NCBI GenBank assembly: GCA_964649625.1
Contig: CAZYRJ010000002.1
Span: 1-42,455 of the forward strand
Length of the DNA: 42,455 bases
Direction: 5' to 3'
DNA from: an uncultured Candidatus Saccharibacteria bacterium
GTDB taxonomy: Bacteria > Patescibacteriota > Minisyncoccia > Phycocordibacterales > 2-02-FULL-43-11
Part shown: positions 21,147-42,455 of the stretch, piece after piece
How the letters are laid out: each line of letters starts with the position of its first letter
Position numbering within the stretch: the stretch's first letter is position 1
The notes under the pieces: model-generated
Told to the model about the DNA's origin: nothing
The model's database searches: none
Seen by the model: only the letters and a program-made list of their open reading frames with translations
Translations under genes and position numbers: made by a program

Positions 21147-22142
21147 ATGAAAATCCTGATCGCTACGGGCATTTATCCGCCGGATATAGGCGGACCGGCA
21201 CGCTATGCCAAAGAGTTAGCCGACGCGGTCAAAGGACTGGGTCACGAGGTGAAAGTTTTGCCGTATCGTTTGGAGCGCAAGTTGCCCTTCGGCATACGCC
21301 AGCTCTGGTATCTAGCTCGATGCCTATTCGCGGCTTCTTCGGCGGATGCTATCATCGCGCTTGATACGGTTAGGGTCGGGTTCCCGGCCGTCGTCGCATC
21401 GTTTTTGATGGGAAAGAAAGTGGCGGTTCGAACCGGTGGTGATTTTCTTTGGGAAGCCTATCTTGAACGAACCGGCTATGAATTGCCGCTTCCGGCGTTC
21501 TATAAAATAATGCCGCCCTTATCGTTTCGAGAGCGGATCATTCAAAAGATCCACCAGTTTCTCTTGGATTACACCGATTTCATGGTGTTCAGTACGGCTT
21601 GGCAGAGAGATATTTGGTTGAGTTTTTACACGATATCCGAAATAAAAGTCCGTATCATTGAAAATTGTTATCACCCGAAACGACAGAATCCCACTCCCGA
21701 TAAAAAGATATTTCTGGGCTCGGCTCGCGATATCGTCATGAAGAATCTGGATAACATCAGGGAAGCCTTTGCTGATGCCAAGAAGAAAATGCCTGAACTC
21801 GAATTGGACCTTAACCCTTACCCGCCCAAAGAATATGATGAAAAATTGAGGACGTGTTACGCGGTCGTTATCGCATCGCTCGGCGATATCAGTCCGAATT
21901 CCATAATTGAGGCGGTTTCTTTCAATAAACCGTTTATCCTGACGAAATACAACGGAATCGAAAAACGGCTAGGGGGCGCGGGTATAATAGTCGACCCGCT
22001 TGATACCCGCGGAATGGCCGAAGCTTTTTTGAAGCTCTCTAAGAAAGACGAATACGACAAGGAGCTCCAAAAGGTCAGGAAGATAACTTTTACTCACTCT
22101 TACGAAGAGATCGCTAAAGAATTTCTAAATTTATTCGTCTAG
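21147..22142 (+). CDS. GT-B fold glycosyltransferase (GT4-like)
   Basis: 331 aa. The N-terminus MKILIATGIYPPDIGGPARYAKELA is typical of GT4. The C-terminal half resembles the nucleotide-sugar binding domain (..IIEAVSFNKPFILTK..G......GIIVDP). Confidence 0.7.
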   Translation: MKILIATGIYPPDIGGPARYAKELADAVKGLGHEVKVLPYRLERKLPFGIRQLWYLARCLFAASSADAIIALDTVRVGFPAVVASFLMGKKVAVRTGGDFLWEAYLERTGYELPLPAFYKIMPPLSFRERIIQKIHQFLLDYTDFMVFSTAWQRDIWLSFYTISEIKVRIIENCYHPKRQNPTPDKKIFLGSARDIVMKNLDNIREAFADAKKKMPELELDLNPYPPKEYDEKLRTCYAVVIASLGDISPNSIIEAVSFNKPFILTKYNGIEKRLGGAGIIVDPLDTRGMAEAFLKLSKKDEYDKELQKVRKITFTHSYEEIAKEFLNLFV

Positions 22143-22143
22143 C

Positions 22144-23277
22144 ATGGCAAAGCTCATCTTTATCGGCAGTGATAGGAATATTTTCCAAGAGGGGAGCGCT
22201 GTTCGCTCTCGCATGGTCGAATACGGGACGCTTTTTGACGAGTTGCACGTCATTGTCAATACGCGCGGGTTTAAGAAACAAGAGCGGTTGTCAGGCAACG
22301 TCGTCGCTTATCCGACAGGCTCTGTTTCAAGATGGCTTTACCCTTCGGACTCGGCCAAGATAGCGACAAATATAATTGCCACAGATCCGCTAGGCGAGTG
22401 GGTCGTAAGCGCCCAGGATCCGTTCGAGAACGGACGCGCCGCCCTTAAGGTCTGCCAAAAAACGGGCGCGAAATTACATGTGCAGGTCCATGTCGATTTT
22501 CTTTCACCGTTCTTCAGAAAGGAGTCGCTTCTCAATACGCTGAGACTGCTTATTGCGAGAAAAGTGCTGGCCGCGGGAGACGGGATTCGCGTCGTTTCGC
22601 CGCGCATAAAGGAATCCATAATAAGCAACGGTAGGTACAAGCTTAAGGCCGAACCGGCCGTTTTGCCCATCTATTCGGAATTCAACGGCCAGGCTGACCC
22701 GTTTTCTTTCAAAACCATCCATCCTGAGTGGAATTTTGTCATTCTTATGGTCGGCCGGATCGAGCCGGAAAAAAATTATCCGCTGGCTCTTAGGGCCCTC
22801 GCCGAAGTTACGAGGCGGTATCCGAAAGTCGGCCTGGCTGTGATCGGGGGCGGCCGAAAAATGCAGAGTGTGAGACGCATGGCGAAAACCCTTGATCTCG
22901 ACAAAAATGTCATTTTTTTGGGGCCAATTTCCGATCCGGCCCCATACTATAAAGGTGCTGACCTGTATCTTCATACGGCCAATTATGAGGGTTATGGGCT
23001 GACCTTGACCGAAGCCGCACTATCCGGTCTGCCTATTATTTCGACCGATGTTGGTTCGATCGGCTGGCTCTTCAAGCAAGGCGAGACGGCTCTCGTTTGT
23101 GAGCCGCAAAACGCCGCTTGTCTATCCAAAGCGTTGCTCAGAATGATAGAAGATAGCGGCTTCGCGGAAAGGTTGCGCATAGGAGCACGTTCTTCGCTTT
23201 TGGAACAGCTACCCAAAGACCGCGCCGAGTATTTAAAAATGTATAAAAACAACCTTCTAAGCTGTTTAAAAGTTTAG
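22144..23277 (+). CDS. Glycosyltransferase family 4
   Basis: 377 aa. Motifs seen: VGRIEPEKNY, YEGYGLTLTEAALSGLPIISTDVGS, and an EX7E-type C-terminal domain. Confidence 0.8.
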   Translation: MAKLIFIGSDRNIFQEGSAVRSRMVEYGTLFDELHVIVNTRGFKKQERLSGNVVAYPTGSVSRWLYPSDSAKIATNIIATDPLGEWVVSAQDPFENGRAALKVCQKTGAKLHVQVHVDFLSPFFRKESLLNTLRLLIARKVLAAGDGIRVVSPRIKESIISNGRYKLKAEPAVLPIYSEFNGQADPFSFKTIHPEWNFVILMVGRIEPEKNYPLALRALAEVTRRYPKVGLAVIGGGRKMQSVRRMAKTLDLDKNVIFLGPISDPAPYYKGADLYLHTANYEGYGLTLTEAALSGLPIISTDVGSIGWLFKQGETALVCEPQNAACLSKALLRMIEDSGFAERLRIGARSSLLEQLPKDRAEYLKMYKNNLLSCLKV

Positions 23278-23324
23278 GCACCTTCACAACTGTGCCTTTG
23301 TCAGGTAAAATATTTTTTCACCCA

Positions 23325-24212
23325 ATGAAAACCGCAACAATAGTCAAACCGAAGATCAAATTAAAAAAGCCTCTGATCGGCTTCATTGGCCAAGGTTTCA
23401 TCGGCAAAAATTATGCGGATGATTTCGAGAGCCGAAAATATCCGGTCCTCCGATATTCGCTCGATAAACAATTCCTCGCCAATAAGGATAAGATCAGGGA
23501 TTGCGATATTGTTTTTATCGCAGTACCGACGCCGTCCACGCCGGAGGGTTTCGATGACAGCATCATCCGTTCCGTCATGAAGCTCATAGGCAAGGGCAAG
23601 ACGGCGGTAATAAAATCAACCATCGTGCCAGGCACGACCGAATCAATCCAGAAACAGAACCCGAATATCTACGTGTTGCATTCACCGGAATTTCTGACGG
23701 AAAAAACGGCTCGAGAGGACGCTACTCATCCCAATAGGAACATCGTTGGTATCCCAATCTCGAACGATGAATTTAGGGGTAAGGCAGAAGCGGTTATCTC
23801 GGTCCTACCCAGGGCGCCCTATTCTGTCGTAACCCAAGCTAGAAATGCTGAGCTTACAAAATATGGCGGCAATATCTGGTTCTACTTCAAGGTCATCTAT
23901 ATGAATATGCTCTACGACCTTTCCGCTAAAGTTGGCGCCGATTTTGAAGCTATCCGTGAGGCCATGGCCGCGGACCCAAGAATCGGTCATTCTCATCTCA
24001 ATCCCGTTCACCAGGGAGGCCGCGGAGCGGGGGGTCACTGTTTCATCAAGGATTTCGCCGCTTTTGCTGAGATATACGAGAGAGAAATGAAAGATCCCCT
24101 CGGTGACGATGTTCTGAAAGCATTGGCTCAAAAAAATATTTCTCTGCTTTTGAAAAGCCACAAAGATACTGACTTACTCAAAGGGGTGTACGGCGCAGAA
24201 ATCGGCAAATAA
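23325..24212 (+). CDS. UDP-glucose/GDP-mannose dehydrogenase family protein lacking the C-terminal domain
   Basis: The start was set at MKTATIV inside track ORF 23292. The Rossmann motif is IGFIGQGFIGK. FIAVPTP and KSTIVPGTT are present, and the catalytic-Cys context is GGHCFIKD. The ORF ends about 50 aa after that Cys, where family members normally have a UDP-binding domain of about 100 aa. Confidence 0.65.
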   Translation: MKTATIVKPKIKLKKPLIGFIGQGFIGKNYADDFESRKYPVLRYSLDKQFLANKDKIRDCDIVFIAVPTPSTPEGFDDSIIRSVMKLIGKGKTAVIKSTIVPGTTESIQKQNPNIYVLHSPEFLTEKTAREDATHPNRNIVGIPISNDEFRGKAEAVISVLPRAPYSVVTQARNAELTKYGGNIWFYFKVIYMNMLYDLSAKVGADFEAIREAMAADPRIGHSHLNPVHQGGRGAGGHCFIKDFAAFAEIYEREMKDPLGDDVLKALAQKNISLLLKSHKDTDLLKGVYGAEIGK

Positions 24213-24243
24213 GCCACATAACAGCGCTGAAAATTTTCGCTCT

Positions 24244-24735
24244 ATGAACGACACAAATAAATTAGATTCTCTAGCAGAGGTCGTCAGAATGGTTTGGCCT
24301 CGACTGTTGCCTTTGTATGGTCGCTACCGGACACTCGCCAATTACCTTATCTCCGGAAGTACCGGCGCGTTCGTCAACCTCTTTTCTCTTTTCATCCTGA
24401 CACATATTTTCCGGTTGTGGTATTTGCTTTCGTCTGTTTTAGCTTTTCTCTTGGCTTTCGGCTTCAGTTTTTTTCTGCAAAAACACTGGACGTTCAGAGA
24501 CCATTCGAATGATGGCGTTCACAAACAGATGTCACTCTTTATGGCGGTATCATTGATAAATCTGGGAGTTAATACGGCACTTATGTACTTTTTTGTGGAC
24601 ATAATTGGAAAAACTTATTTCCCGAACTATTATGATCAGACCCTTTGGTACCTACTCTCTCAGTTTGTGGCCGCCGGTCTCATCGCCATTGAGAGTTTTT
24701 TTGTCTACAGGGCGTTTATTTTCAGGAGAGCTTGA
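24244..24735 (+). CDS. GtrA-family membrane protein
   Basis: 163 aa with 4 TM helices. The motif is YLISGSTGAFVNL.....L......WYLLS...AF.....FSFFLQKHWTF. Confidence 0.72.
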   Translation: MNDTNKLDSLAEVVRMVWPRLLPLYGRYRTLANYLISGSTGAFVNLFSLFILTHIFRLWYLLSSVLAFLLAFGFSFFLQKHWTFRDHSNDGVHKQMSLFMAVSLINLGVNTALMYFFVDIIGKTYFPNYYDQTLWYLLSQFVAAGLIAIESFFVYRAFIFRRA

Positions 24736-24771
24736 ATTGGCTAACTCTTCTGTTTCAAGGCGGGGATAGTT

Positions 24772-24780
24772 GGGGGGGGG
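24772..24780. repeat. G9 homopolymer in an intergenic spacer
   Basis: Nine consecutive G residues in the 174-nt spacer between the GtrA-like gene and the next GT4 gene. Confidence 0.9.
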
Positions 24781-24909: not shown

Positions 24910-25983
24910 ATGAACAAAACAGACATTCGACTGCTTATTGTCACTCAAATTGTAGACCAAAACGACGACGTTTTGGGTTTTTTTCACCGTTGGCTTGAGG
25001 TGTTTTCGAATAAGTTCGAAAGAATTAGCGTGGTTTGTCTCAAGAAGGGAGAAAATAGCTTGCCCAAAAATATCTCGGTCTATTCTCTTGGAAAGGAAAA
25101 TAATGAATTAGGCATTAGGAAGAAAGAATTATGGAGTAGGCTCAAATACTCATTGAAATTTGTACGATATATCGTACAAAAAAGAAAAGATTATGACAGG
25201 GTTTTCGTCCACATGAACCAGGAGTATGTATTACTTGGAGGACTTTTGTGGAAATTGATGGGTAAAAAAATAACGATGTGGAGAAATCATCAGGCCGGTA
25301 ATTTTCTGACCAGGATTGCGGTTGTTCTTTCCGATAAAGTTTTTTGCACTTCGCCATCAGCATTTGTCGCCCAATTTAAAAAAACAGTTATCATGCCCGT
25401 TGGAATAGATACGAACTTTTTTCAAGCGAGTGGTTCCGCGATTGAGCCCGCTACTATTCTGTTTTTTGGCCGGATGGACAAGATAAAAAGACCCGACCTT
25501 TTTATCGACAGCCTAGAAATTTTGCGAAAGAGAGGTCAGATATTTCGTGCCGAGATAGTCGGTAATGCGACAAATATTTCTTTTATGGAAAAGCTAGCCA
25601 TTCAGATCGATAGGTGCGATTTAACTGATCAGGTAAAACTATTGCCCGGACTGCCATACATCCGATCAGCCGACATGTATGGACATCACGAGGTTTACGT
25701 CAATTTGACTCCGGACGGCAGTATGGACAAAACGATCATCGAAGCAATGGCTTCGGGAGTTTTGCCGGTTGTCACCAATTCTTTCTTTAAGAATAAAATT
25801 GACGATCATTTTGTAACTGGCGATGAACCAAGCGCGATTGCCGGTCATATTTCGAGAATTTTAGCGATGACACCGGCCGAAAAACAAGGACACAGGGATC
25901 GGCTTCGCCAATATGCCGTCAAAAACCATTCACTGAATTTATTAGCCGATGGGTTGGCGGATGAGCTCCAATTTCTTAAATGA
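24910..25983 (+). CDS. Glycosyltransferase family 4-like
   Basis: 357 aa. Motifs seen: FFGRMDKIKRPDLFI and ..DGSMDKTIIEAMASGVLPVVTNS. Confidence 0.7.
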   Translation: MNKTDIRLLIVTQIVDQNDDVLGFFHRWLEVFSNKFERISVVCLKKGENSLPKNISVYSLGKENNELGIRKKELWSRLKYSLKFVRYIVQKRKDYDRVFVHMNQEYVLLGGLLWKLMGKKITMWRNHQAGNFLTRIAVVLSDKVFCTSPSAFVAQFKKTVIMPVGIDTNFFQASGSAIEPATILFFGRMDKIKRPDLFIDSLEILRKRGQIFRAEIVGNATNISFMEKLAIQIDRCDLTDQVKLLPGLPYIRSADMYGHHEVYVNLTPDGSMDKTIIEAMASGVLPVVTNSFFKNKIDDHFVTGDEPSAIAGHISRILAMTPAEKQGHRDRLRQYAVKNHSLNLLADGLADELQFLK

Positions 25984-27137
25984 AAAATACGTTGTCTCTG
26001 TGTCACAAAGAACATTTAATGAAATCAACCGAAGGTTCGGTATTGTTTTTAGTTAATAAACTCAAGCGCGGCGGCGCAGAGAAAGTTTTCATGAACCAAG
26101 CCAGCTATTTAGCCGGCCGCCATGCTATTTACTTGGCCGCCGCTCTTCCTTCGTCATCGGCCGACAATTATCTTATAGATTACGGCATGAACAGGGAGGA
26201 TGTATTTTTTTGCGATTTCAAAAACTTTTTCGACTTGGGCGCTTTTTGGCGCCTGCGGCGTTTCGTAAGAAAGCGAGATATCAGAGTTGTCTATTCAACT
26301 CTGGAATTTTCAAATGTTATATCGCGGTTGCTAAAGATATTTTCACCGTCAATCCGAGTTATTATTCGAGAATCCGGCATGGCTTTCAGAAAGCCGCCGA
26401 TGGTTAAACTTCTGGACATCATCCTTAATTTCTTGGCTTTTAGAATTGTGGCAGTATCCGCTGCGGTCCGAGACAGTCTGGCCGATTATCAACATTTACA
26501 TGCGCATAAATTTGTTATCATAGAAAACGGCGTGCCCGTATTGCCTTATGAAGTAGTGGCGGGCCTTCGAGCGGATGTTTTTCGGAAAGGTTTGCAAATT
26601 TTGCATGTTGGTTCAATGAATAACGGCAACAAAGGGCATGCCGAGCTCATTGATGTTTTCAATTCATTGAGCGACGAGTTGTTGGCGAACGTGAGCCTGA
26701 CTTTTGCCGGTGATGGAAATTTGCGCTCCAGTCTGGAAGCAAAAGCCAGGAAGACCAAAAAACCCGACAAAATAATTTTTGTGGGCAACTTAACCGGCGG
26801 TCAAATGAAAGCTCAGTATTTGTCAGCAGATATTTATATCTTAAATTCCAAAAACGAAGGATGTCCTAACACCGTCTTGGAAGCCATGTCTTACGGTTTG
26901 CCGGTTTTATCGACTAGGGTTGGCGGGGCGACGGAAATCATTGAAGACGGCAAATCCGGCATTTTGGTTCCAGTTGGCGATAAAGAGGCTATGCGGGATG
27001 CCATTCGGAATTTATTGACGGACGAATCGCTACGCCACGAAATGGGCAAAGCGGCGGTTCTGCGGATACGCGACAAATATACATTGGAAGGCCAAATCTC
27101 TAAGCTTGCGCCACTTCTTGGAGTCCGGATGAAGTGA
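25980..27137 (+). CDS. Glycosyltransferase family 4
   Basis: 385 aa. An ATGA overlap with the upstream stop suggests translational coupling. Motifs seen: KRGGAEKV and NSKNEGCPNTVLEAMSYGLPVLSTRVGGATEIIEDGKSGILV. Confidence 0.8.
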   Translation: MKNTLSLCHKEHLMKSTEGSVLFLVNKLKRGGAEKVFMNQASYLAGRHAIYLAAALPSSSADNYLIDYGMNREDVFFCDFKNFFDLGAFWRLRRFVRKRDIRVVYSTLEFSNVISRLLKIFSPSIRVIIRESGMAFRKPPMVKLLDIILNFLAFRIVAVSAAVRDSLADYQHLHAHKFVIIENGVPVLPYEVVAGLRADVFRKGLQILHVGSMNNGNKGHAELIDVFNSLSDELLANVSLTFAGDGNLRSSLEAKARKTKKPDKIIFVGNLTGGQMKAQYLSADIYILNSKNEGCPNTVLEAMSYGLPVLSTRVGGATEIIEDGKSGILVPVGDKEAMRDAIRNLLTDESLRHEMGKAAVLRIRDKYTLEGQISKLAPLLGVRMK

Positions 27138-27162: not shown

Positions 27163-28152
27163 ATGAAATTGGTAGTTACTGTTGATACTGAGGCGGATAA
27201 TCAATGGCAACATCGCCCCGAAATTAGTCTCAAAAACATCGTATTTTTGGAAAGGTTCCAGAAAGTCTGCGAGCAATACGGTTTTCCCCCGACATATTTG
27301 ATTACGTATGAAGTCGCGACGGACGAGAAGGCGGTAAGTCTTTTGTCGTCGTGGCAAAAACGGGGTGTTGCTGAAATTGGTGCTCACCTTCACCCCTGGA
27401 CCACACCCCCAGAGAATGGAGTGGCGGGTCCGGATGGAAAAATAGAGCATCCTTTTCCATCAGAGCTTCCGTATGACTTGTTGGAGAATAAACTTAAATC
27501 TTTGTCGAGGGCGATTCACGAAAGTTTCGGTATTAAACCTGTAAGTTATCGCGCCGGACGTTGGGGCATGGATGAGAGGCAGCTAAAAATTCTTAAAGAC
27601 CTTGGTTTTAAGGCTGATTGTTCGCTGACGCCGAAAGTTGACTGGCGAAGAAACATCGGGGCCAAGGGCGGCCGAGGCGGCAAAGATTGGCGATCGGCCA
27701 GCGTTTATCCTTACTATCCGTCAGAGTGCAACATTTTTTTGGCCGAGAATGATAAGAGGTTGCTTGAGGTGCCGATGACTGTTTTATATACCGGAGTTTG
27801 TTGTCGGGAGAAATCCGCTCTGTGCAGAATAATGAGCCGGTTACCCGAGAGTTTTCCCAAAAAAGTTCTCAATCGGCTGTTTTTCAAAAGAAAATGGTTG
27901 CGCGTTTTTCCGAAGAGCGAAATCGGTCATTGGCGCGGGATTTATGATTCGGCGAAACTAAACAATTTGCCGGTTATGGAATTCATGATCCATTCTTCCG
28001 AATTGATGCCAGGCGGCAGTCCGAGTTCCAAGACGGAGAGCGACGTCGATGCGGTGTATAAAAATCTTGAAGCAATGTTCACCTTATTCAGGGATCGCGG
28101 CGTGCAGGGTGTCACCTTGGGTCAATTTGCTGATTGGTTTAACAGTAATTAA
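27163..28152 (+). CDS. Polysaccharide-deacetylase-superfamily protein (WalW/ArnD-like)
   Basis: 329 aa. The N-terminal MKLVVTVDTEADNQW and GAHLHPW resemble the DxD/His metal-site pattern of the deacetylase beta/alpha-barrel superfamily. Confidence 0.55.
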   Translation: MKLVVTVDTEADNQWQHRPEISLKNIVFLERFQKVCEQYGFPPTYLITYEVATDEKAVSLLSSWQKRGVAEIGAHLHPWTTPPENGVAGPDGKIEHPFPSELPYDLLENKLKSLSRAIHESFGIKPVSYRAGRWGMDERQLKILKDLGFKADCSLTPKVDWRRNIGAKGGRGGKDWRSASVYPYYPSECNIFLAENDKRLLEVPMTVLYTGVCCREKSALCRIMSRLPESFPKKVLNRLFFKRKWLRVFPKSEIGHWRGIYDSAKLNNLPVMEFMIHSSELMPGGSPSSKTESDVDAVYKNLEAMFTLFRDRGVQGVTLGQFADWFNSN

Positions 28153-32903: not shown

Positions 32904-33275
32904 ATGGAAGGAAAAAAAAGAAAAATATCGATCCTTGTTCCTTACCGTCGCACTGGACACGATGTTGCCGTCTTTTTTGGCGGCGGCGCGGAAGGCCAGG
33001 AAAACCCCGAGCAGGCGCTAATTAGGGAAATTAAGGAAGAACTGGATTTCGAACCGCTCGGCAACAATTTCTTTCGGAAGTACGAATTCGAGGGTAGTAT
33101 TAAGCATATTTTTATCATTGGGGTTGAAGAAAGTTTTGATACGAAAATAACGATATTAGAAGGGCAGTACGGCCGATGGTTCAACCGATCTGAAGTAGAG
33201 GAAGAACCGAAACTGATCGAAGAAGATAAGATTGTTCTCAGAGATTTATATCGATATCTGTTGATGAAGAAATGA
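32904..33275 (+). CDS. Small Nudix hydrolase
   Basis: 123 aa. GGGAEGQENPEQALIREIKEELDF fits the Nudix box Gx5Ex7REUxEExGU, except that the last Gly is absent. Confidence 0.6.
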   Translation: MEGKKRKISILVPYRRTGHDVAVFFGGGAEGQENPEQALIREIKEELDFEPLGNNFFRKYEFEGSIKHIFIIGVEESFDTKITILEGQYGRWFNRSEVEEEPKLIEEDKIVLRDLYRYLLMKK

Positions 33276-34463: not shown

Positions 34464-35162
34464 ATGAAAAAAATTTCTGTAGTCATACCCGTTCATAACG
34501 AACACGCCACTATAAGCCAAATTATAGATAAGGTTAAGCGGGTGCCAATGTCCGGCATCGAAAAAGAGATCATCGTTGTCGATGACTGTTCTACGGACGG
34601 CACCCGGGATGTGCTGAAGCAAATCTCGGGTATAAAAGTTTTGATTCACGAGAAGAATCTCGGCAAAGGCGGTGCGATGAAGACCGGTTTTAAGAACGCC
34701 TCGGGGGACATTCTCATTCCGCAAGACGCCGATTTGGAGTACGATCCGAACGACTTACCCGCTTTGATAGCGCCGATCTTGCGCGGAGAGAGTCAGGTTA
34801 CAAACGGCGTACGGCTTCAGCCTAAAAATGATCATAGGCGCCTCTCGCCGTCTTACTGGGCTCATTGGGCGGGGAATAATGCCATCACGTGGCTGACTAA
34901 CATCCTTTTTCTGCATTATTCAAAAGAGTACGAAGGCTGTTACAAAGCCTTTACAAGAGAGATCATCGATTCGATACACGTCGACACCAATAACTTCGAT
35001 TTCGATAACGAGCTCATTTGCAAGATCTTAAAAAAATGCCACAAAGTGATAGACGTGCCGATTCGATATTACCCCCGCGGCTACGAAGAAGGTAAGAAAA
35101 TAAATTGGAGACACGGTTTTCTGATCCTGTGGACCATTTTCAAGACCCGTTTCACCGATTGA
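34464..35162 (+). CDS. Glycosyltransferase family 2, DPM1/ArnC/GtrB-like (polyprenyl-phosphate glycosyltransferase type), no TM tail
   Basis: 232 aa. Motifs seen: ISVVIPVHNE, IIVVDDCSTDGT, NLGKGGAMKTGF and DADLEYDP. Confidence 0.82.
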   Translation: MKKISVVIPVHNEHATISQIIDKVKRVPMSGIEKEIIVVDDCSTDGTRDVLKQISGIKVLIHEKNLGKGGAMKTGFKNASGDILIPQDADLEYDPNDLPALIAPILRGESQVTNGVRLQPKNDHRRLSPSYWAHWAGNNAITWLTNILFLHYSKEYEGCYKAFTREIIDSIHVDTNNFDFDNELICKILKKCHKVIDVPIRYYPRGYEEGKKINWRHGFLILWTIFKTRFTD

Positions 35163-35228: not shown

Positions 35229-35660
35229 ATGGATAAAAAGGTTATGTCAAAGCCGATTCTCATCGCTCGAGACAACAGGGGTATCATCGAAAAACTGGCA
35301 GATGGGAATTACCGCGCCGTGCTTCGGATCACTTCGAAGAAAGGAACGGTTCGCGCCAATCACTATCACAAGATAGGTTCGCACCTTTGCTACCTGGCTT
35401 CCGGTCAAATCGAATATGTCTGGCGCGACACGGTGGACGAAAGCGATCCTGTTCAAAAAAAATTAATCAAACCAGGTGATCTTTTCTTTTCTCCGCCCAT
35501 GGTGCCTCATGCCATGCATTTTCTGGAGGATTCCGAGTTTTATACTTTTGAAACGGCCGATACCAGGAAGGATCAAGCCGCTTACGAAAACGATCTGGTC
35601 CGCGTAAATTTGGTTGAGCCTGAAATTCCACTCATCGCTGACATAAAAAATGGCAAATAA
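35229..35660 (+). CDS. Cupin-fold sugar-nucleotide enzyme (WxcM/FdtA-like ketoisomerase or 3,5-epimerase-like)
   Basis: The start was set at MDKKVMSKP (alternatives TTG 35190 and ATG 35244). Motifs seen: RDNRG......G......I.S.KG..RANHYHK and ..PPMVPHAMHF. Confidence 0.55.
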   Translation: MDKKVMSKPILIARDNRGIIEKLADGNYRAVLRITSKKGTVRANHYHKIGSHLCYLASGQIEYVWRDTVDESDPVQKKLIKPGDLFFSPPMVPHAMHFLEDSEFYTFETADTRKDQAAYENDLVRVNLVEPEIPLIADIKNGK

Positions 35661-36906
35661 AGCCGCGAGAAAATTTTTTAGGGAAAGGAGCGACTGCCGT
35701 CTCTGCGGCAGTCGCCGTCTTATTGCCTTGTGGCAGTTCGGAAAAACTCCGCTTGCCAATTCATATCTAAAAAAAAGCGAGTTAAAGAGGAAAGAGGTCG
35801 AAGCGCCGCTTAATATCGCCCGCTGTCAGAGCTGCAATTTGGTCCAGCTTACCACGGTCGTCGATCCGAAAGTGCTTTTCTCCGACTATCTTTATGTTTC
35901 CTCCACGTCTCCAAAGTTCGTGGCGCACTTTAAGGCTTATGCCCGTTCGATATCAGAGCGCTTCGATGTGACTAAAAAAGATCTGGTCGTGGATGTGGGG
36001 AGCAATGACGGCATACTGCTTAAACATTTCGCCGAGCTAGGTGTGAATATTCTGGGCATCGATCCGGCGGAAAACGTGGCCGAAATGGCCAACAAGCGCG
36101 GCCTCCGGACTTTAGCAGTTTTTTTTAACCAAGCTGTAGCTAAGGATATTCGACAGCAGTACGGCCCAGCAAAGATCATAACGGCCAATAATGTTTTTGC
36201 GCACACCGATCAGGTCAGAGATTTTGCCGTTTCGGCCAAGGAGTTACTGGCTGAGGACGGAGTTTTTGTGTTCGAGGTGCAGTATCTTAAGGATTTGATC
36301 GAGCAGAATTTATTTGACATTGTCTATCACGAGCATCTTTGCTATTACCACTTGACGCCGCTTGCGCCTTTTTTTTCGTCGATCGGTCTTGAAGTATTCG
36401 ATGTTCGGCGCATGGAAGTTCACGGCGGGTCGCTTCGGGTTTTTGTCGGTAGATCAGGGAAACATTCGATTTCGAAAAATATCGGCGAATTCCTGAAACG
36501 GGAGAAATATCTCAACACTTCGAAGCCTTACCGCGCTTTCATGAGGCGGATCAAAGCAAACGAAAAAAAGCTTAGAAAACTGCTTAAGACCATCAAAAAA
36601 GCCGGCAAAAGGGTTGTCGGCTATGGCGCGCCCGCTAAGGCGACGACCTTAAGCTATGTGTTCAAATTGACGGGCAAGGATCTGGAATATATTGTTGACG
36701 ATGATAAAAAGATAAAGCAGGGACTGTTCATGCCCGGTACACATATTCCAATTCGGCCGCCCGAAGCGCTTTACAGTGATCAGCCCGATTATTGTTTGGT
36801 TCTGGCTTGGAATTTTGCGGCTTTGATCGTCAAAAACCACGAACGTTTTACAAAACAGGGTGGCAGATTTATAATCCCGGTACCGTCACCTAAGATAATA
36901 AGCTAA
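35650..36906 (+). CDS. NDP-sugar C-methyltransferase (TylCIII/NovU type)
   Basis: 418 aa. An N-terminal Cys4 zinc ribbon (CRLCGS...CQSCNLVQL) is followed by the SAM motif VVDVGSNDG and a C-terminal C-methyltransferase domain. Confidence 0.78.
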   Translation: MANKAARKFFRERSDCRLCGSRRLIALWQFGKTPLANSYLKKSELKRKEVEAPLNIARCQSCNLVQLTTVVDPKVLFSDYLYVSSTSPKFVAHFKAYARSISERFDVTKKDLVVDVGSNDGILLKHFAELGVNILGIDPAENVAEMANKRGLRTLAVFFNQAVAKDIRQQYGPAKIITANNVFAHTDQVRDFAVSAKELLAEDGVFVFEVQYLKDLIEQNLFDIVYHEHLCYYHLTPLAPFFSSIGLEVFDVRRMEVHGGSLRVFVGRSGKHSISKNIGEFLKREKYLNTSKPYRAFMRRIKANEKKLRKLLKTIKKAGKRVVGYGAPAKATTLSYVFKLTGKDLEYIVDDDKKIKQGLFMPGTHIPIRPPEALYSDQPDYCLVLAWNFAALIVKNHERFTKQGGRFIIPVPSPKIIS

Positions 36907-36915
36907 AACTAAAAT

Positions 36916-38043
36916 ATGTCAGTAAAAATCGTAAGGCAGGATATTGCGGCCATTGCCGAGGGACTTAAGCACGAAGCCAAAAAATTCGAAGGAAAGACAA
37001 TATTGATCAGCGGCGGAGGCGGTTTTTTAGGCAAATACATCGTTGGAACGCTGTGCTATTTAAACGACAAAGTCCTATCAAAGCCGTGCCGCGTAATTTC
37101 CGTTGATAATTTCATAACCGGCCGCGCCCACCCGCACTTCAATTATAAGGGGCGGAGTGACATTATCGAGGTTTGGGGGGATGTTACTCATCCACTTCCG
37201 ATCCGAGAACCGGTGCATTACATCTTGCATGCCGCCGGTCTCGCATCTCCCGTCTACTACAAAAAGTTTCCTCTGGAAACCATAGATAGCGCTATCTTGG
37301 GCGTTAGGAATTTACTGGAGCTCGCTAAGGCCAATGCGGATAATTTGGAGGGCTTTGTTTTCTTCAGTTCGAGTGAGATCTATGGTGATCCGGACCCGAG
37401 TGCCGTGCCTACGCCGGAAACTTATCACGGTTACGTCTCTTCGATCGGTCCGCGCGCCTGTTATGACGAATCGAAACGGTTAGCCGAGACTGTAACGACG
37501 GTTTACGTGGAGAAGTATGGTCTTTCCGCCAAGATTGTCAGACCGTTCAATGTTTTTGGTCCAGGCATGGGGCATGATGACCGCAGGGTTTTGCCAATGT
37601 TTGCTTTCAGGGCGCTCAATAAGCGGCCTATTCCTGTTCACGGTGATGGTCATCAGACTCGTACTTTTTGTTATATCACCGATGCTACCACGGGGTTTCT
37701 AAAAGTTTTGGTGAACGGGAGGCCTGGCGAAGCTTACAATATCGGCAACTCCGACAACGAAATTTCCATGAAAGATCTCGCTGAGCTTTTTGTGGATTTG
37801 GAGGGGGGCCGATCGAAAGTCGAACTCATACCTTATCCGTCCACTTATCCGGCCGGAGAACCACAGCGCCGATGCCCTGATCTAACTAAGGTAAAAAAAG
37901 AACTCGCTTTTCAACCGAAGGTTTCCCTTAGGACGGGTCTTAGGCGGTTCATTGACTGGTGCCGGAGCGAAGATATGTACAAAGAAAAACTCATCAAAGT
38001 ACTGCCGAAAACGCCGGCCATCAAAAAACACGCCAGAATTTAA
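36916..38043 (+). CDS. SDR-family NAD-dependent sugar-nucleotide decarboxylase/epimerase, UXS/ArnA-C-terminal-like
   Basis: 375 aa. Motifs seen: ILISGGGGFLGKY and SSSEIYGDPDPSAVPTPETYHGYVSSIGPRACYDESKRLAET. The second parallels the UDP-glucuronate decarboxylase signature (YGDP..HPQ.E.YWG.VNPIG.R.CYDEGKR.AE). Confidence 0.8.
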   Translation: MSVKIVRQDIAAIAEGLKHEAKKFEGKTILISGGGGFLGKYIVGTLCYLNDKVLSKPCRVISVDNFITGRAHPHFNYKGRSDIIEVWGDVTHPLPIREPVHYILHAAGLASPVYYKKFPLETIDSAILGVRNLLELAKANADNLEGFVFFSSSEIYGDPDPSAVPTPETYHGYVSSIGPRACYDESKRLAETVTTVYVEKYGLSAKIVRPFNVFGPGMGHDDRRVLPMFAFRALNKRPIPVHGDGHQTRTFCYITDATTGFLKVLVNGRPGEAYNIGNSDNEISMKDLAELFVDLEGGRSKVELIPYPSTYPAGEPQRRCPDLTKVKKELAFQPKVSLRTGLRRFIDWCRSEDMYKEKLIKVLPKTPAIKKHARI

Positions 38044-39020
38044 TGATCACATTAGCCATCATCGGAGTTGGGAATTGGGGAAAGAACATCCTTTCGACTT
38101 TGGCAACCCTTCCGCATGTGAAGGTCGGATATCTCTGCGACCCCAACCGATCGCTATCCGCAACTTTGACGAACGCCAAGATAGTCGGTCATTGGAAAGA
38201 ATTATTGGAGAGCGGCCTTGACGGTGTCGTCATCGCCACGCCGCCTTCGACCCATGCTTCCATAGCCATTCCTTTTATAAAAAAAGGTGTAGCTGTGTTT
38301 GTGGAAAAACCGATGACCGAAGGGTTGAGCGATGCCAAAAAGCTCTTTGAAGCCTCAAAAAAGGCGAAGGCGCCAGTCATGGTCGGCCACATCCACCTTT
38401 TCAACCCGGCTTATATTGCTTTAAAAAAAATCGTTCGGGAATTGGGCGGTATACGCCTGATCCGCACCTCGGCAGGAAATTATGGACCTTTTCGCGATGA
38501 TTTTTCGGCTCTTTGGGATTGGGCGCCGCATGATGTGGCCCTTGTATTGGATTTGCTCGAGGCGATGCCCAAAACGGTCTCGGCTTGGGGAGATTGTATA
38601 TACCGTTCTAAGACTGATCTATATGAGACGGCCCAATTGAGGATGACATTTTCGAACGGGGTGGCCGCTACGATCCGCGTTTCATCACTGGATCCAATAA
38701 AAAACAGGGAAGTTACCGTGCTGGCAGGGCAGGGGCTTGTCCGATTCGATGACATCGCCGATAAAAAAGTCGCGCTCTACAAAAATTTCGCCCCAGATTT
38801 CCGTAAGAAGGGCAATTTAAATCCGAGAGAAGCCGAGATAATCTACCCCCGTGTTTCGCCGGAAAAGCCGCTTGAGGAGGAGCTAAGAGTTTTTATCGAT
38901 GCCATCCATAACAAAACAGAACCGGTCTCAAACGCGGAATTAGGATACAAAGTGGTTCGGAGCTTGGATGCGGCGGACCGTTCCATTGCCCAAAAAGGTA
39001 AAGAAATTTCTTTATTGTGA
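38043..39020 (+). CDS. Gfo/Idh/MocA-family oxidoreductase
   Basis: The start was set at MITLAIIGVGNWGKN, with a TAATG overlap with the upstream stop, inside track ORF 37959. It has a Rossmann N-terminal domain and VFVEKPM. Confidence 0.78.
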   Translation: MITLAIIGVGNWGKNILSTLATLPHVKVGYLCDPNRSLSATLTNAKIVGHWKELLESGLDGVVIATPPSTHASIAIPFIKKGVAVFVEKPMTEGLSDAKKLFEASKKAKAPVMVGHIHLFNPAYIALKKIVRELGGIRLIRTSAGNYGPFRDDFSALWDWAPHDVALVLDLLEAMPKTVSAWGDCIYRSKTDLYETAQLRMTFSNGVAATIRVSSLDPIKNREVTVLAGQGLVRFDDIADKKVALYKNFAPDFRKKGNLNPREAEIIYPRVSPEKPLEEELRVFIDAIHNKTEPVSNAELGYKVVRSLDAADRSIAQKGKEISLL

Positions 39021-39028: not shown

Positions 39029-39059
39029 AAAATTCTAATACAAAATTTCTTAGAATTTT
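39029..39059. terminator. A+T-rich hairpin between convergent genes
   Basis: AAAATTCTAA (39029-39038) / TTAGAATTTT (39050-59), a perfect 10-bp stem. It overlaps the stop codon of the minus-strand gene. Confidence 0.45.
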
Positions 39060-39625
39060 CCTGATTTTCGGCGGGTGCTGATGAGCGCGAGGTACTTTTT
39101 CCGAAGCCCAAGAATGTCGATGATCGGAAAAAGGAAAGTCAAAATAATGTCAGTTATGGCTTCTCTCGGGCGCGGAATTCCGGAGGTAATGTAGTGTTTG
39201 GCCTTGACGGCCTCAGTAATGCAGAGCCAGCGGACGCGCAGGTAGTGAGTGGCGGTTGAAATGATTATCAGGTCAGCCTTTTTTTCGGCGGCGATTGCCT
39301 TGGCTATCTGGAGTTGCCCGATAGTGTCGAAGCCGCGGCGCTCGATCGAAACATTTTGAGCGCCGAGTTTTTTTAAAGCCTCAACATAATAATCAGCTTC
39401 AGCCCTTGACCCTTTAATGTGAACCGCGCTTAAAACCAAAATTTCGGGTGAGCCGCCGTGCTCTAAAATTTTTTTCTCCAAGTCAACCGACAAAAGGCAA
39501 GTTTTGTACCAATCCTGTTTTTCCAAAAGGCCAACTCGGCCTTTGTGCGGGCTTTTCGTGAGAGGAAGTATTACAAACCTATTTGCCACGCAAACAGTAT
39601 ACAAAAAACGAGTGATTTTAGTCAC
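39050..39625 (-). CDS. DUF218/YdcF-like protein, paralogue 1
   Basis: 191 aa. Motifs seen: ILPLTKS..KGRVG....DWY, IIISTATHYLRVRWL (compare the DUF218 pattern vTs.yH..Ra) and GIPRPREAITD. Confidence 0.5.
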   Translation of the reverse strand: MTKITRFLYTVCVANRFVILPLTKSPHKGRVGLLEKQDWYKTCLLSVDLEKKILEHGGSPEILVLSAVHIKGSRAEADYYVEALKKLGAQNVSIERRGFDTIGQLQIAKAIAAEKKADLIIISTATHYLRVRWLCITEAVKAKHYITSGIPRPREAITDIILTFLFPIIDILGLRKKYLALISTRRKSGKF

Positions 39626-40249: not shown

Positions 40250-41578
40250 ATGAAAACAAACCCAAAAAATATTTTGGCCCTGATCCTTGTCGGGGCATTT
40301 CTATTTTCCATCGCGTACGCATTTTATTTCAGGATTGAACCTACGGTCGACGCCGACGCTTATGACGCGATAGCGATCAATTTAGTTGCCGGAAACGGCT
40401 ATGTCGAAAATACGGAAATTCCATTAGCCGAGGATTCGGCCATTGGCCGTGTCGGCCCAGGGTATCAATTTTTTCTTTTCCTCGTCTATAAGATCTTCGG
40501 TCATCATTACCCAGTCGTGTGGATGATCCAGGCTTTGCTTCACGTGTTGACGGGCGGTATGTTATTTCTCATCGCCTCCAAACTTTTCAAAGAACGGGGA
40601 CAATGGATCGGGCTCATAGCAACTGCGCTATATATATTTTTTATAGATGTTATTCAGATGAGCGCCATGCTCATGACAGAAACGCTCTTCCTGTTCCTGA
40701 CCGCGTTGTCAATATATTTCTTCGTTCTATTCTACGAGCGGCCGAGCAAAGCTAACGCCTTGCTCCTTGGTGTTGCCACAGCGCTTTGCATTCTAACCCG
40801 ACCGACCGCGCTCCTTTTATTGGTGATGTATCTTATTTTTGCCGTATCGAAGAAATATTTTGTCCAGGCGCTTATTCTCGCCTTATGCTTCACTTTCATA
40901 ATCGGGCCTTGGACTTCAAGGAATTACCGCGTTTATGATCGGTTCATCATGACGACGGCCGCGGGCGGTTATGACATCTGGGTTGGCAATAATCCGGAAG
41001 CGAGCGGTGAATTGGAAGCGTCGGCCACCATCACGGCATATCTCGACAATTACGGAGTCGAAGCGGCGGATAAAAAGGGGATTGAGGAAGTAAAGAAATT
41101 CATACTGACCGAGCCTTTGAACTTCATCAGGCTTCAGCTTATTAAAACGTCAATATATTTCAGCGCGGCACGGCCCTCGGCTTTCTGGTTCCATCTCTCC
41201 GGGACGTCAAAAATGGCGACCGTCGTGCTCTCGAGTATTTTTGCTTTTGTTACGTTCGCTTTAGGGTTTGCCGGGTTGTGGCTCGCGTTCAAGAAGCGCG
41301 GGATTTTCCGGTGGTTGGCCGCCTTGACGCTTGCCGCTCCGGTTGCCGTCATCCCTATCATAGTGGAGACGCGATACAGGTTTCCGATATACCCATTGAT
41401 GGCGCTATTCGCGGCGTACTTTGTGCATGAGATATATCAAAGCCATCGGGCAACAGGGAAATTCGCATGGACACGAGAGCTCAAGATATTCGCCGTTACG
41501 GCCTCGGTCGTGATGCTTAATACGGTTTTCGACGCCTGGCGGAACTTTGATGTCGTTAAGGATAAGCTCGGCCTATGA
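40250..41578 (+). CDS. GT-C fold membrane glycosyltransferase (GT39/GT83, ArnT/PMT_2-like)
   Basis: The start was set at MKTNPKN, where TGcTAGAAT (40228-40236) lies 13 nt upstream (track start 40190). There are about 11 TM helices. The first extracytoplasmic loop, DADAYDAIAINLVAGNGY, is typical of ArnT/PMT-type enzymes. Confidence 0.7.
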   Translation: MKTNPKNILALILVGAFLFSIAYAFYFRIEPTVDADAYDAIAINLVAGNGYVENTEIPLAEDSAIGRVGPGYQFFLFLVYKIFGHHYPVVWMIQALLHVLTGGMLFLIASKLFKERGQWIGLIATALYIFFIDVIQMSAMLMTETLFLFLTALSIYFFVLFYERPSKANALLLGVATALCILTRPTALLLLVMYLIFAVSKKYFVQALILALCFTFIIGPWTSRNYRVYDRFIMTTAAGGYDIWVGNNPEASGELEASATITAYLDNYGVEAADKKGIEEVKKFILTEPLNFIRLQLIKTSIYFSAARPSAFWFHLSGTSKMATVVLSSIFAFVTFALGFAGLWLAFKKRGIFRWLAALTLAAPVAVIPIIVETRYRFPIYPLMALFAAYFVHEIYQSHRATGKFAWTRELKIFAVTASVVMLNTVFDAWRNFDVVKDKLGL

Positions 41579-42455
41579 AATTATTGATCAAAACCAAAGA
41601 GTTCCTCGTCTATCATAAATTTATAGTTATTGCCGCGTTATTTTTGGTGCTTTTGATCGAAGCGCCGCTCCTCTATTTTCCCTATTACGCCGGGGAAAGA
41701 TATCAAGGCATCAACATCGCGCATTTTGGTACCGACGAGCATTATTATTTGACGAGGGCGAAAGAAGTGCTCGAAGGCAGGAATTTGGGCCAGCCGGCTC
41801 TTGCCGAATGGAAGGAAAAACAGGATCCGACCTTTTCTTCGATAGAAGCCGTGGTACTTTTCCCGTTGCGTTTATTGAAAATGGCCGACCGTGTCGATGT
41901 TGTAACTCTCTACAACTTCTATAACGCGGCAGCCATTTTTGCCATCATCATGCTGATATACGCTCTCCAATTTTCCATATCCGGGAATCGCTTATTGGCG
42001 GCGGCAACGGCCCTTTTTGTGGTCGGCGGCTATTCGATTGTCTACAACAAAGGCTTATTCTACGAAGATTTCAATATTTATGGTCGGTCCGTTATACCCT
42101 GGGGAGCACTGATTCCTTTTTATATAATGCTCAATTTGCTATACCTGGGGGTTTCGAAAGCCAAAACGGGCTGGATAATCGCCGCGGGGTTAGTTTTCGG
42201 CTTTCTTTTCTATGATTATTTTTACGCCTGGACCCTTTCGCTCTCTCTTTTGGCGGCTATGGCCGTAAGTTACATAGTCTTTAAACAGGCTAAGGTGGCC
42301 AAATCGATTGCTATATCTCTTTGTTTGGGAATAGTTCTTGGCTTGCCGGTCCTTTTCGGCATGCTCGAATTGTACAGATCGTCCATGGGGGAGCAGTTGT
42401 CGTACTTTTTGATGTCTTCGGCAGGCCGGACAGCCGTATTCAGTAAAATCGGTTT
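41575..42455 (+). CDS. Polytopic membrane protein, 5'-partial view (runs off the window)
   Basis: Absent from the ORF track because there is no stop in the window. My translation runs from the ATG at 41575, which has an ATGA overlap with the upstream stop: MKLLIKTKEFLVYHKFIVIAALFLVLLIEAPLLYFPYYAGERYQGINIAHFGTDEHYY... The frame is open to 42455 and has many TM helices. It may be a second GT-C enzyme or a polymerase-like protein. Confidence 0.55.
   Translation, partial: MKLLIKTKEFLVYHKFIVIAALFLVLLIEAPLLYFPYYAGERYQGINIAHFGTDEHYYLTRAKEVLEGRNLGQPALAEWKEKQDPTFSSIEAVVLFPLRLLKMADRVDVVTLYNFYNAAAIFAIIMLIYALQFSISGNRLLAAATALFVVGGYSIVYNKGLFYEDFNIYGRSVIPWGALIPFYIMLNLLYLGVSKAKTGWIIAAGLVFGFLFYDYFYAWTLSLSLLAAMAVSYIVFKQAKVAKSIAISLCLGIVLGLPVLFGMLELYRSSMGEQLSYFLMSSAGRTAVFSKIG

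Follow-up and report, generated by a model that had tools for sequence, protein, structure and literature searches.

A cell-envelope glycan locus of Candidatus Taylorbacteria predicted to make a UDP-linked C-methyl-branched pentose

The Arn pathway takes a UDP-uronic acid to a UDP-4-keto-pentose, tailors the sugar at the keto stage, loads it onto polyprenyl phosphate with a family 2 glycosyltransferase (GT2) and transfers it outside the cell with a GT-C enzyme of the PMT/ArnT type, and the same logic can be followed in the gene locus described here, which occupies positions 21147-42455 of contig CAZYRJ010000002.1 (we refer to the entire 42,455-bp contig as the window). The window comes from a bacterium of the candidate phyla radiation (CPR; Patescibacteria), as a first-pass annotation had surmised: NCBI records of Candidatus Taylorbacteria (Parcubacteria group) include exact matches (100% identity) to the products of the genes at 27163 and 36916, and the same locus is also found in a second assembly, GCA_016188445.1. 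The likeness to Arn extends to single proteins, with ArnC among the best solved matches of the GT2, ArnD among the top structural neighbors of a CE4-fold protein and, in a related locus (L013), a decarboxylase of the type of the ArnA C-terminal domain (ArnA-CTD). Although it follows Arn logic, the locus is not an Arn pathway: it is without ArnB, a formyltransferase domain and ArnE/F (no SMR/EamA-type pair was found, and a GtrA-family protein is present instead), its predicted decarboxylase is of the UDP-xylose synthase (UXS) type (199 bits to human UXS1, hUXS1, versus about 60 bits to ArnA), its tailoring step would be a C-methylation, and its GT2 is without the membrane helices of ArnC. The host, as a CPR bacterium, is presumed to lack lipid A.

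The polyprenyl-phosphate-sugar systems GtrA/GtrB/Gtr*, CsbB/GtcA/YfhO and mycobacterial PpgS/Rv3789/Rv3779 have three components, and their hallmarks are a GT-C fold and a lipid-linked donor (PMC11127046). All three components are encoded in the window with the sequence-level features of the class, but their genes are spread over 17 kb instead of being adjacent, and the synthase would consist of a soluble GT2 and a free GtrA, two parts that L028 and L029 encode as one fused protein. Furthermore, the known systems move common sugars such as Glc, Gal, GlcNAc, GalN and Rib/Ara, whereas the window has beside its GT2 a module predicted for an unusual branched sugar. Branched sugars are familiar from the pathways of TylC3, TcaB9, MtmC and KijD1 (L-mycarose, D-tetronitrose, D-mycarose), whose C-methyltransferases belong to the same family as the one encoded here, match it over the full length and align with it at the motifs; the Tyl pathway likewise combines its C-methyltransferase with a cupin epimerase, a short-chain dehydrogenase/reductase (SDR) and a reductase of the Gfo/Idh/MocA family, as in the window. 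Those branched deoxysugar pathways are part of antibiotic clusters, start from dTDP-4-keto-6-deoxyglucose (RmlA/RmlB) and usually need a 2,3-dehydratase, whereas the predicted keto generator of the window is of the UDP-glucuronate (UDP-GlcA) decarboxylase type and belongs to a primary cell-envelope locus in CPR. Branched pentoses that derive from UDP-GlcA via a 4-keto-pentose are known from eurekanate/everninomicin biosynthesis (EvdS6, AviE2) and from UDP-apiose synthase (UAXS) (PMC10338323; PMC5607165), but the eurekanate branch is made by two-carbon transfer dependent on thiamine diphosphate (ThDP) and apiose by ring contraction within one enzyme, and neither involves a SAM-dependent C-methyltransferase. 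The cytoplasmic chemistry suggested by the window would join two known elements, UDP-GlcA decarboxylation (UXS, ArnA, EvdS6) and TylC3-type C-methylation, a combination of C-methyltransferase and UXS or UDP-4-keto-pentose for which we found no description in the full-text literature, searched mostly outside subscription journals.

We propose that the window carries a CPR cell-envelope glycan locus that makes a UDP-C-methyl-branched pentose destined for export on a lipid carrier, a reading to which we give a probability of roughly 0.55 and which draws on gene families, motifs, synteny and gene fusions. Gene families were assigned by Pfam, NCBIfam and PDB sequence searches, complemented by two AlphaFold2 (AF2) structure predictions compared with Foldseek, and all features lie on the forward strand unless stated otherwise. 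From these data we infer the substrates, the position of methylation, the order in which cupin and oxidoreductase act and the sugar loaded by the GT2. In the first module (34464-39020), which holds the GT2 gene and a cassette of cupin, C-methyltransferase (C-MT), UXS-like SDR and Gfo/Idh/MocA oxidoreductase (GFO) genes, the SDR would supply UDP-4-keto-pentose and the C-MT would add a methyl group, presumably at C3 by analogy with TcaB9 and MtmC; the RmlC-like cupin may then set or isomerize the adjacent stereocenter, and the GFO would reduce the remaining keto group to give the UDP-C-methyl-branched pentose. In the second module, the soluble GT2 and the GtrA-family protein would act as a split enzyme of the dolichol-phosphate mannose synthase (DPMS) type that transfers a sugar, proposed to be the branched pentose, to polyprenyl phosphate, and after translocation the GT-C protein of the PMT_2 family and/or the polytopic protein coupled to it would pass the sugar to an extracytoplasmic acceptor other than lipid A. 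The third module (21147-34387), with five family 4 glycosyltransferases (GT4s), a short protein of the UDP-glucose dehydrogenase (UGDH) family, a CE4-fold protein, AsnB, a methyltransferase and a NUDIX hydrolase, probably builds and tailors the glycan underneath, possibly an amidated one with uronic acid.

The strongest part of this proposal is the decarboxylase and C-MT module, and the lipid-carrier route for the branched sugar is plausible. The first-pass annotation had described an Arn-like surface glycosylation locus with a C-MT in the place of the aminotransferase; we find the genes that it named at, or within a few codons of, where it put them, and its family calls hold in Pfam, NCBIfam and PDB searches. 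Its overall interpretation is supported in part, most strongly for the decarboxylase and C-MT module, while the Ugd and ArnD analogies turn out to be weak and the lipid loading of the methylated sugar is suggested by gene proximity.

The SDR gene (36916..38043) encodes an extended SDR that we predict to be a UDP-glucuronate 4-oxidase/decarboxylase from its ranking against solved structures and from its motifs. Among solved structures hUXS1 scores 199 bits (37% identity), the next one 112 bits, RmlB about 90 and ArnA about 60. The motifs GGGGFLG, SSSE, YDESK, FNVFGP and QTRTF are found clade-wide in the 12 orthologs that we aligned with hUXS1, three canonical-length UXS-like proteins and one true RmlB, the last of which has TDE. 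The protein thus shows the GxxGxxG motif, the S/T...YxxxK triad and, after the catalytic Ser/Thr, Ser-Glu and not Asp-Glu, together with the conserved Arg that serves as a criterion for the UXS family in PMC10338323. Its clade, which is abundant in CPR, has an N-terminal extension of its own and three short insertions. In NCBIfam, a dTDP-glucose 4,6-dehydratase model ranks first (112 bits versus a cut-off of 365), the decarboxylase models listed are PRK11908 and ArnA only, and no plain UXS model is among the matches of the SDR. A function as 4,6-dehydratase was rejected on account of the wide lead of hUXS1 in the PDB ranking and of SSSE in place of TDE, so that the earlier call of a UXS-type enzyme, and not a 4,6-dehydratase or plain epimerase, is upheld. 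We consider it quite likely that the SDR acts as a decarboxylase on a UDP-uronate. For UXS-type enzymes, neither sequence nor active site nor even structure reveals if the product released is 4-keto-pentose or UDP-xylose, and GlcA decarboxylases can release the 4-keto-pentose for later tailoring, including the formation of branched chains (PMC10338323).

The C-MT gene (35650..36906) starts within the cupin gene and ends 9 nt before that of the SDR. Its product matches MtmC (4rv9, 323 bits) and TcaB9 (255 bits) over the full length, contains the two domains PF08421 (Methyltransf_13, 68 bits) and PF08484 (Methyltransf_14, 168 bits), both above cut-offs, and aligns with MtmC and TcaB9 at the Cys4 zinc motif (CxxC...CxxC), NxxxH and YxEH, whose His, Glu and Tyr residues we take to be catalytic. 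Judged by these features it is a genuine sugar C-methyltransferase of the TylC3/TcaB9/MtmC type; an exact database look-up of the window protein returned no record. The cupin (35229..35660, with an alternative TTG start at 35190) is RmlC-like and a putative NDP-keto-sugar epimerase/isomerase, with a Cupin_2 match below cut-off. In 14 cupin orthologs encoded next to a C-MT, residues R30, G31, H58, H60, Y132 and E133 are invariant, and the cupin profile matches RmlC (2b9u/1wlt, 29 bits, E = 4e-6) and the cupin domain of Cap5F (24 bits), with generic cupins such as oxalate decarboxylase scoring alike. The GFO (38043..39020), assigned by Pfam and a putative keto-reductase or 3-dehydrogenase, has as its best NCBIfam model NF040723 (archaeal UDP-GlcNAc 3-dehydrogenase; 133 bits, below cut-off) and as its best PDB match the uncharacterized protein 3c1a (159 bits), with 7bvj at 47 bits. 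Its start codon is the ATG at 38043, which overlaps the SDR stop codon by 1 nt (TAATG). The overlapping stop and start codons described earlier for the cassette are present at two of the three junctions (cupin/C-MT, 11 nt; SDR/GFO, 1 nt) and absent from the C-MT/SDR junction.

For the comparison with other genomes, related loci (numbered with the prefix L) were collected from a C-MT scan of species-representative genomes (22 loci) and from exact look-ups (10 loci; six UXS-like, one short-UGDH homolog). We observe that the C-MT gene immediately adjoins a UXS-like ortholog (49-77% identity) in 21 further loci of CPR bacteria and archaea (L001-L012, L015, L020, L022, L027-L030, L032, L033), often with overlapping start and stop codons, which bears out the expectation that the cassette is co-conserved. 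The UXS-adjacent C-MTs form two deep clades with ~35% identity between them, indicating that the pairing is ancient or was assembled more than once. A GFO gene follows the UXS-like gene in L001-L003, L005, L007-L011, L027 and L029-L033, and the cupin accompanies only one of the two C-MT clades.

The most telling case is L013, which encodes the C-MT closest to that of the window (60% identity) and where an SDR of the ArnA-CTD type, not a UXS-like one, starts 28 nt later. This SDR reaches 478 bits with NF008872, the model of the bifunctional UDP-4-keto-pentose/UDP-xylose synthase (cut-off 294), and 377 bits with ArnA. The presence of two kinds of UDP-GlcA decarboxylase in one slot fits a need of the C-MT for UDP-4-keto-pentose, and this nonorthologous replacement supports a predicted C-methylation of UDP-4-keto-pentose as well as the earlier view that a C-MT stands where ArnB would be. 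On balance, it seems likely that the C-MT acts on the keto-pentose product of the SDR. In the same region of L013 (9989-13155), an aldo-keto reductase is encoded where the GFO would be; this locus also codes for Gmd, ManC-like and Wzy_C-TPR proteins and, from 18248 onwards, for a pair resembling ThDP-dependent E1.

The remaining C-MT contexts each have a 4-keto-generating SDR of their own adjacent, namely, RmlB in L012 (439 bits, above cut-off) and an FnlA-like protein in L029 (404 bits), and a distant C-MT gene in L017 comes after a CDP/dTDP-glucose dehydratase-like gene. The L029 case, in a closed Kaiserbacteria genome, is a second C-MT gene among FnlA-like, RmlD-like and WecB-like genes (L029:4432-8777); this context predicts a C-methylated 2-acetamido-2,6-dideoxyhexose, and C-methyl sugars may be common on CPR surfaces. 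The RmlB genes (L012:8584-9585; L014:7635-8642; L022:8447-9562) come from two Levybacteria metagenome-assembled genomes (MAGs) and one MAG labeled Gammaproteobacteria. Each of these three loci also has a UXS-like gene of canonical length whose neighbor encodes a WecC/TviB-like dehydrogenase, a pair that we take to resemble the one for UDP-GlcNAcA decarboxylation (UDP-XylNAc). In L030-L032, a GalU-like nucleotidyltransferase (183 bits) is encoded directly upstream of the triad of C-MT, UXS-like and GFO genes, which suggests a UDP-linked pathway. Inositol-monophosphatase/CysQ-like, GalU-like and CPDase/2H-phosphoesterase-like genes stand together directly upstream of the triad in two of these loci (L030:6475-8751; L032:6134-8784) and may represent an alternative precursor route.

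On the membrane side, the GT2 (34464..35162) is a soluble 232-aa protein without any hydrophobic segment and is DPMS/ArnC/AglJ-like by PDB and NCBIfam similarity. Its best solved relatives are the DPMS of P. furiosus (5mlz, 69 bits, residues 3-211) and three ArnC structures (60, 55 and 54.5 bits), and its top NCBIfam models are AglJ (107 bits), ArnC (61 bits) and PpgS (56 bits), all below cut-offs. Over its full length it aligns with residues 2-230 of a 362-aa GT2::GtrA fusion from Kaiserbacteria (L029:15212-16300; 36% identity, E = 2e-47), and the GtrA-family four-helix membrane protein of the window (24244..24735; PF04138, 76 bits versus a cut-off of 26) aligns with residues 244-358 of the same fusion (37% identity, E = 3e-25). 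The fusion gene adjoins a PMT_2 gene, with the triad of C-MT, UXS-like and GFO genes 4 kb away, and a similar fusion gene adjoins a PMT_2 gene in L028 (L028:2111-3244). P. furiosus DPMS, with its catalytic domain followed by a GtrA/DPMS-type membrane domain (PF04138), has the same architecture as these fusions, whereas the window encodes the catalytic and membrane halves separately, at a distance of 10 kb. GT2 and GtrA together look like a split DPMS-type synthase by these alignments, and the earlier grouping of the GT2 with polyprenyl-phosphate glycosyltransferases agrees with the DPMS, ArnC and fusion matches. The flippase role commonly assigned to GtrA is a proposal only (PMC11127046), and the fusions suggest that GtrA may be a membrane or lipid-binding module for glycosyltransferases, more than a mere flippase. 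The family assigned to GtrA in the first-pass annotation is thus confirmed, while the protein may serve a split DPMS-type synthase or a GT4 as membrane half and not be a dedicated flippase.

The GT-C glycosyltransferase of the PMT_2 family (40250..41578; longest open reading frame [ORF] from 40190) scores 46 bits against PMT_2 (cut-off 26) and 22 bits against PMT, has at least eight hydrophobic segments and carries the loop VDADAYD after the first transmembrane segment; D36, Y38 and N44 do not vary among four divergent CPR GT-Cs, so that the expected conserved Asp after this segment is indeed kept. A sequence search found no solved relatives of this protein, and it is 31% identical to the PMT_2 protein encoded two genes past the GFO in L032. 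The second polytopic membrane protein (41575..42455) has no Pfam match and is incomplete at the contig end; its start overlaps the GT-C stop as ATGA at 41575-41578, a coupling that had been noticed before. Membrane proteins of 571-581 aa in L030-L032, whose genes come after that of a small GT2 on the downstream side of the cassette, are 26-28% identical to it (E = 1e-10). This ~575-aa polytopic family without a Pfam model (L030:13849-15564; L032:17457-19202) recurs right after a small GT2 or GT-C near the cassette, has a long first loop with GTDEHYY and may be an unclassified GT-C family. A YfhO-like identity of the 41575 protein, as in L011, was rejected, as there is no similarity and the match is to another family without a Pfam model. 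GtrA, GT2 and PMT_2/TM2-like genes occur near the cassette in L011, L028, L029 and L030-L032, and in L011 genes for DUF218, GtrA, GT2, methyltransferase, PMT_2 and YfhO-like proteins are all within 8 kb of the triad. Two DUF218 genes of the window (39050..39625, reverse strand, PF02698 27 bits, product 39% identical to the cassette-adjacent DUF218 protein of L011; 39632..40186, reverse strand, PF02698 22.5 bits) form a divergent tandem between GFO and GT-C, and DUF218 genes stand beside the cassette in L011 and L033 as well (L011:14914-15426; L033:19198-19839).

Several observations weigh against a UDP-pentose route with lipid-carrier export, some of them bearing on the precursor and others on the last steps. 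With respect to the precursor, the sole UGDH-like gene of the window is without a UDP-binding domain and there is no full-length UGDH gene, which weakens the case for a supply of UDP-GlcA. To our knowledge, every characterized member of the C-MT family uses dTDP-4-keto-6-deoxyhexoses, the best solved relatives of the window C-MT being users of dTDP-sugars too, and cupin, C-MT, SDR and GFO correspond, family by family, to TylK, TylC3, TylC2 and TylC1 of the L-mycarose pathway. In addition, a true RmlB (TIGR01181, 439 bits, above cut-off) is encoded directly upstream of cupin and C-MT in the Levybacteria-type loci L012, L014 and L022, no UXS-like ortholog adjoins the C-MT gene of L014, and a Gmd gene lies 2.3 kb upstream of that of L013. 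The cassette might accordingly follow a mycarose-like route, acting on an NDP-4-keto-6-deoxyhexose from an RmlB/Gmd/FnlA-type dehydratase encoded elsewhere, with the SDR as a 4-ketoreductase or merely as a maker of UDP-xylose for some other use. We regard this as a distinctly unlikely account of the window, where neither a dehydratase nor RmlA is encoded (nor within 10 kb in most triad loci), where the SDR is specifically UXS-like and not RmlD/TylC2-like, and where no 2,3-dehydratase is present to make the 3-keto group for a TylC1-type GFO; moreover, an ArnA-type decarboxylase fills the same slot in L013, and the GalU-like gene upstream in L030-L032 favors UDP-sugars. At least for the cupin-containing clade, the 6-deoxyhexose route is nevertheless a real rival. 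The nearest named relatives of the GFO are 3-dehydrogenases (UDP-GlcNAc 3-dehydrogenases by both NF040723 and 7bvj), not 4-ketoreductases, and the invariant HxH of the cupin is like that of 3,4-ketoisomerases. The order of events could also be reversed, with the SDR as an ordinary UDP-xylose synthase (the sequence of a UXS-type enzyme does not disclose whether its product is keto or reduced; PMC10338323), the GFO oxidizing UDP-xylose or another UDP-sugar at C3, the C-MT methylating beside the 3-keto group and the cupin acting as a keto-isomerase. However, the triad occurs without its GFO in L028, L012 and L022, and L013 combines an aldo-keto reductase, and no GFO, with a decarboxylase of the ArnA/RsU4kpxs type, which is known to release the 4-keto product. 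The known C-MTs of the family require a 4-keto group, and on these grounds we hold a start by the GFO to be very improbable.

With respect to the last steps, direct use of the UDP-sugar in the cytoplasm is a serious alternative. Leloir-type GT4 or GT2 enzymes might consume the branched UDP-pentose, with GT2, GtrA and GT-C forming a separate three-component side-chain system for a common sugar within a mosaic island. The GT4 gene directly after the GFO gene in L030-L032 means that a cytoplasmic glycosyltransferase could use the UDP-sugar directly, and GT4 genes flank the triad in L027, L029 and L033. In the Saccharibacteria and Andersenbacteria loci L001, L003 and L008-L010, the cassette is surrounded by housekeeping genes such as infB, and genes for GT2, GtrA and GT-C are absent nearby; in about a third of the loci it stands alone, without GT2 or GT-C genes. 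Furthermore, the GtrA gene of the window is 10 kb from that of the GT2 and amid GT4 genes, and a GtrA domain fused to a GT4 in L024 (L024:1778-3301) shares 41.5% identity with its product; in view of this resemblance to both GT2-fused and GT4-fused domains, GtrA may partner either kind of glycosyltransferase. The membrane components of other loci belong to the same families but are not orthologous, being only 24-37% identical to those of the window. On the other side, the gene just before the cassette in the window is that of the GT2, which has the same orientation and is separated from it by about 30-66 nt, genes for a small GT2 and a PMT_2/TM2-like protein are found a few kilobases from the triad in L011, L028, L029 and L030-L032, and a small GT2 gene accompanies that of an unclassified polytopic family near the triad in L012 and L022. 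We judge the cytoplasmic alternative as a whole to be rather unlikely; the more specific proposal that the branched sugar is the one routed through GT2, GtrA and GT-C, which places it on polyprenyl phosphate because of gene proximity, is in turn possible but doubtful.

The short UGDH-family dehydrogenase (23325..24212) has PF03721 and PF00984 only, without PF03720 (UDP-binding domain), and scores 133 bits against TIGR03026, below the cut-off of 190, over positions 71-279 of 413. The Cys motif GGHCFIKD, K179 and N183 are invariant in 32 homologs, and we take these Cys, Lys and Asn residues to be catalytic. Proteins of the same kind (280-330 aa, 57-71% identity) are at the top of a search of 5.8 billion proteins, all named members being CPR, and the AF2 model is confident (pLDDT 93), with Foldseek TM-scores to UGDHs of 0.77 for the query and 0.51 for the target, of which about half is covered. 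A pseudogene or truncation was rejected in view of this model and of more than 100 clusters of the same length at 57-71% identity. One particular GT4, 30-43% identical to GT4c of the window (24910..25983; assigned by Pfam and by synteny as the conserved short-UGDH partner), comes no more than two genes after the short UGDH in the window, L011, L024/L025/L026, L029 and L033, and L024 has a full-length nucleotide-sugar dehydrogenase alongside it. This constant GT4 partner and the full-length dehydrogenase of L024 indicate a role of the short UGDH that is distinct from, or goes beyond, supply of the decarboxylase. Short UGDH and triad share one locus in the window, L011, L029 and L033 (short-UGDH sites: L011:2120-2992; L024:8001-8945; L029:333-1223; L033:3512-4378). 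In place of the Ugd counterpart named in the first-pass annotation, we thus find a CPR-wide short family without a UDP-binding domain that is tied to a GT4 and not to the cassette.

Similarly, the protein described earlier as ArnD-like (27163..28152) proves to be a generic CE4/NodB-fold deacetylase-like protein that would have no obvious role in a pathway without an N-formyl group. Its Pfam match has E = 0.02 only and a sequence profile gave no better than E of about 0.2 against PDB, and the fold assignment comes from an AF2 model (pLDDT 93.8) whose top Foldseek matches are putative polysaccharide/peptidoglycan deacetylases (3rxz, E = 8e-10; HP0310), with ArnD (8t0j) at rank 5 (E = 4e-8, TM-scores 0.49/0.58, 10% identity). 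It has more than 2000 homologs, most of the named ones from CPR. An AsnB-type glutamine amidotransferase (28160..30019, start per NCBI call; TIGR01536, 390 bits, cut-off 267), whose second-best NCBIfam model is the XrtA/PEP-CTERM amidotransferase, and a small protein with a faint FemAB/GNAT-like match (30057..30758; FemAB E = 0.007 only, no NCBIfam match) are encoded next to it, the three genes (27163-30758) standing side by side amid GT4 genes. The best NCBIfam models of these GT4s are glycosyltransferases of PEP-CTERM/XrtA systems, and the gene set recalls exosortase-type exopolysaccharide loci, with matches below cut-offs.

The other GT4s are GT4a (21147..22142; Glyco_trans_1_4, 34 bits; 29% identical to the GT4 part of the L024 GtrA::GT4 fusion), GT4b (22144..23277; Glycos_transf_1, 118 bits; ortholog-like copies in L011 and L024), GT4d (25980..27137, with the NCBI start at 26019; Glycos_transf_1, 126 bits) and GT4e (33272..34387; Pfam; 34-37% identical copies near the cassette in L011, L027 and L029). 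Between the FemAB-like gene and GT4e lie genes for a polytopic membrane protein with a C-terminal DUF2914 (30793..31911; PF11141, 44 bits; ~7 hydrophobic segments), a class I SAM methyltransferase (32039..32890; Methyltransf_23/11; weak relatives near GT2/GT-C genes in L011 and L012) and a NUDIX hydrolase (32904..33275; PF00293, 36 bits). According to the NCBI calls, the starts of the AsnB, GT4d and FemAB-like ORFs are probably later than those of the longest ORFs.

Positions 1-21,000 of the window carry housekeeping genes (BipA, AlaRS, ribosomal proteins S13, S11 and S4, RpoA, HisRS and a sigma factor). The glycan locus reaches the right end of the contig and is cut there, so that a possible exporter or priming enzyme encoded downstream would lie outside our view. 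In line with the first-pass annotation, Pfam and NCBIfam gave no match to an aminotransferase, formyltransferase, Wzx, Wzy, ABC transporter or priming phosphoglycosyltransferase in the long ORFs scanned, and no DegT/DnrJ/EryC1 or other aminotransferase domain was seen in any scanned ORF. Scans of the window for tRNAs and Rfam families gave no match, and promoter and terminator scans for operon limits returned counts no different from those in shuffled sequence. We also observe that the GC content dips to about 0.43 at 12000-14000 and 24000-26000, compared with about 0.48-0.50 elsewhere, that a PaaX_M (Cas2-like domain) protein is encoded at 13051-13671 and that two large ORFs (423 and 441 aa; 4837-7536) are without a Pfam family or have only a faint GlxA beta-barrel match.

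CPR bacteria (Patescibacteria) live attached to host cells, and their cell-surface chemistry is almost uncharacterized. In this context, a compact conserved module of three to four genes predicts a concrete, undescribed sugar that is checkable in vitro. We advance with some reserve, at a little below even odds, the generalization that CPR (Parcubacteria, Saccharibacteria, Andersenbacteria, Levybacteria, Kaiserbacteria) together with some archaea produce a UDP-C-methyl-branched pentose by means of a UXS/ArnA-type decarboxylase, a TylC3-type C-MT and a GFO or other reductase, with polyprenyl-phosphate/PMT_2-based display in, for example, Taylorbacteria and with uronic-acid chemistry supplied by a CPR-specific two-domain mini-UGDH that lacks a UDP-binding domain. 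For the annotation of CPR envelope genes, the short UGDH family and the GT2/GtrA pairs, split or fused, offer useful handles. If the proposal is true, TylC3-type C-methylation, known from dTDP-6-deoxyhexoses in antibiotic pathways, would extend to UDP-pentoses in primary envelope glycans, and the UDP-4-keto-pentose node would gain a fourth kind of tailoring in addition to amination (Arn, calicheamicin), branching with ThDP (eurekanate) and reduction (xylose).

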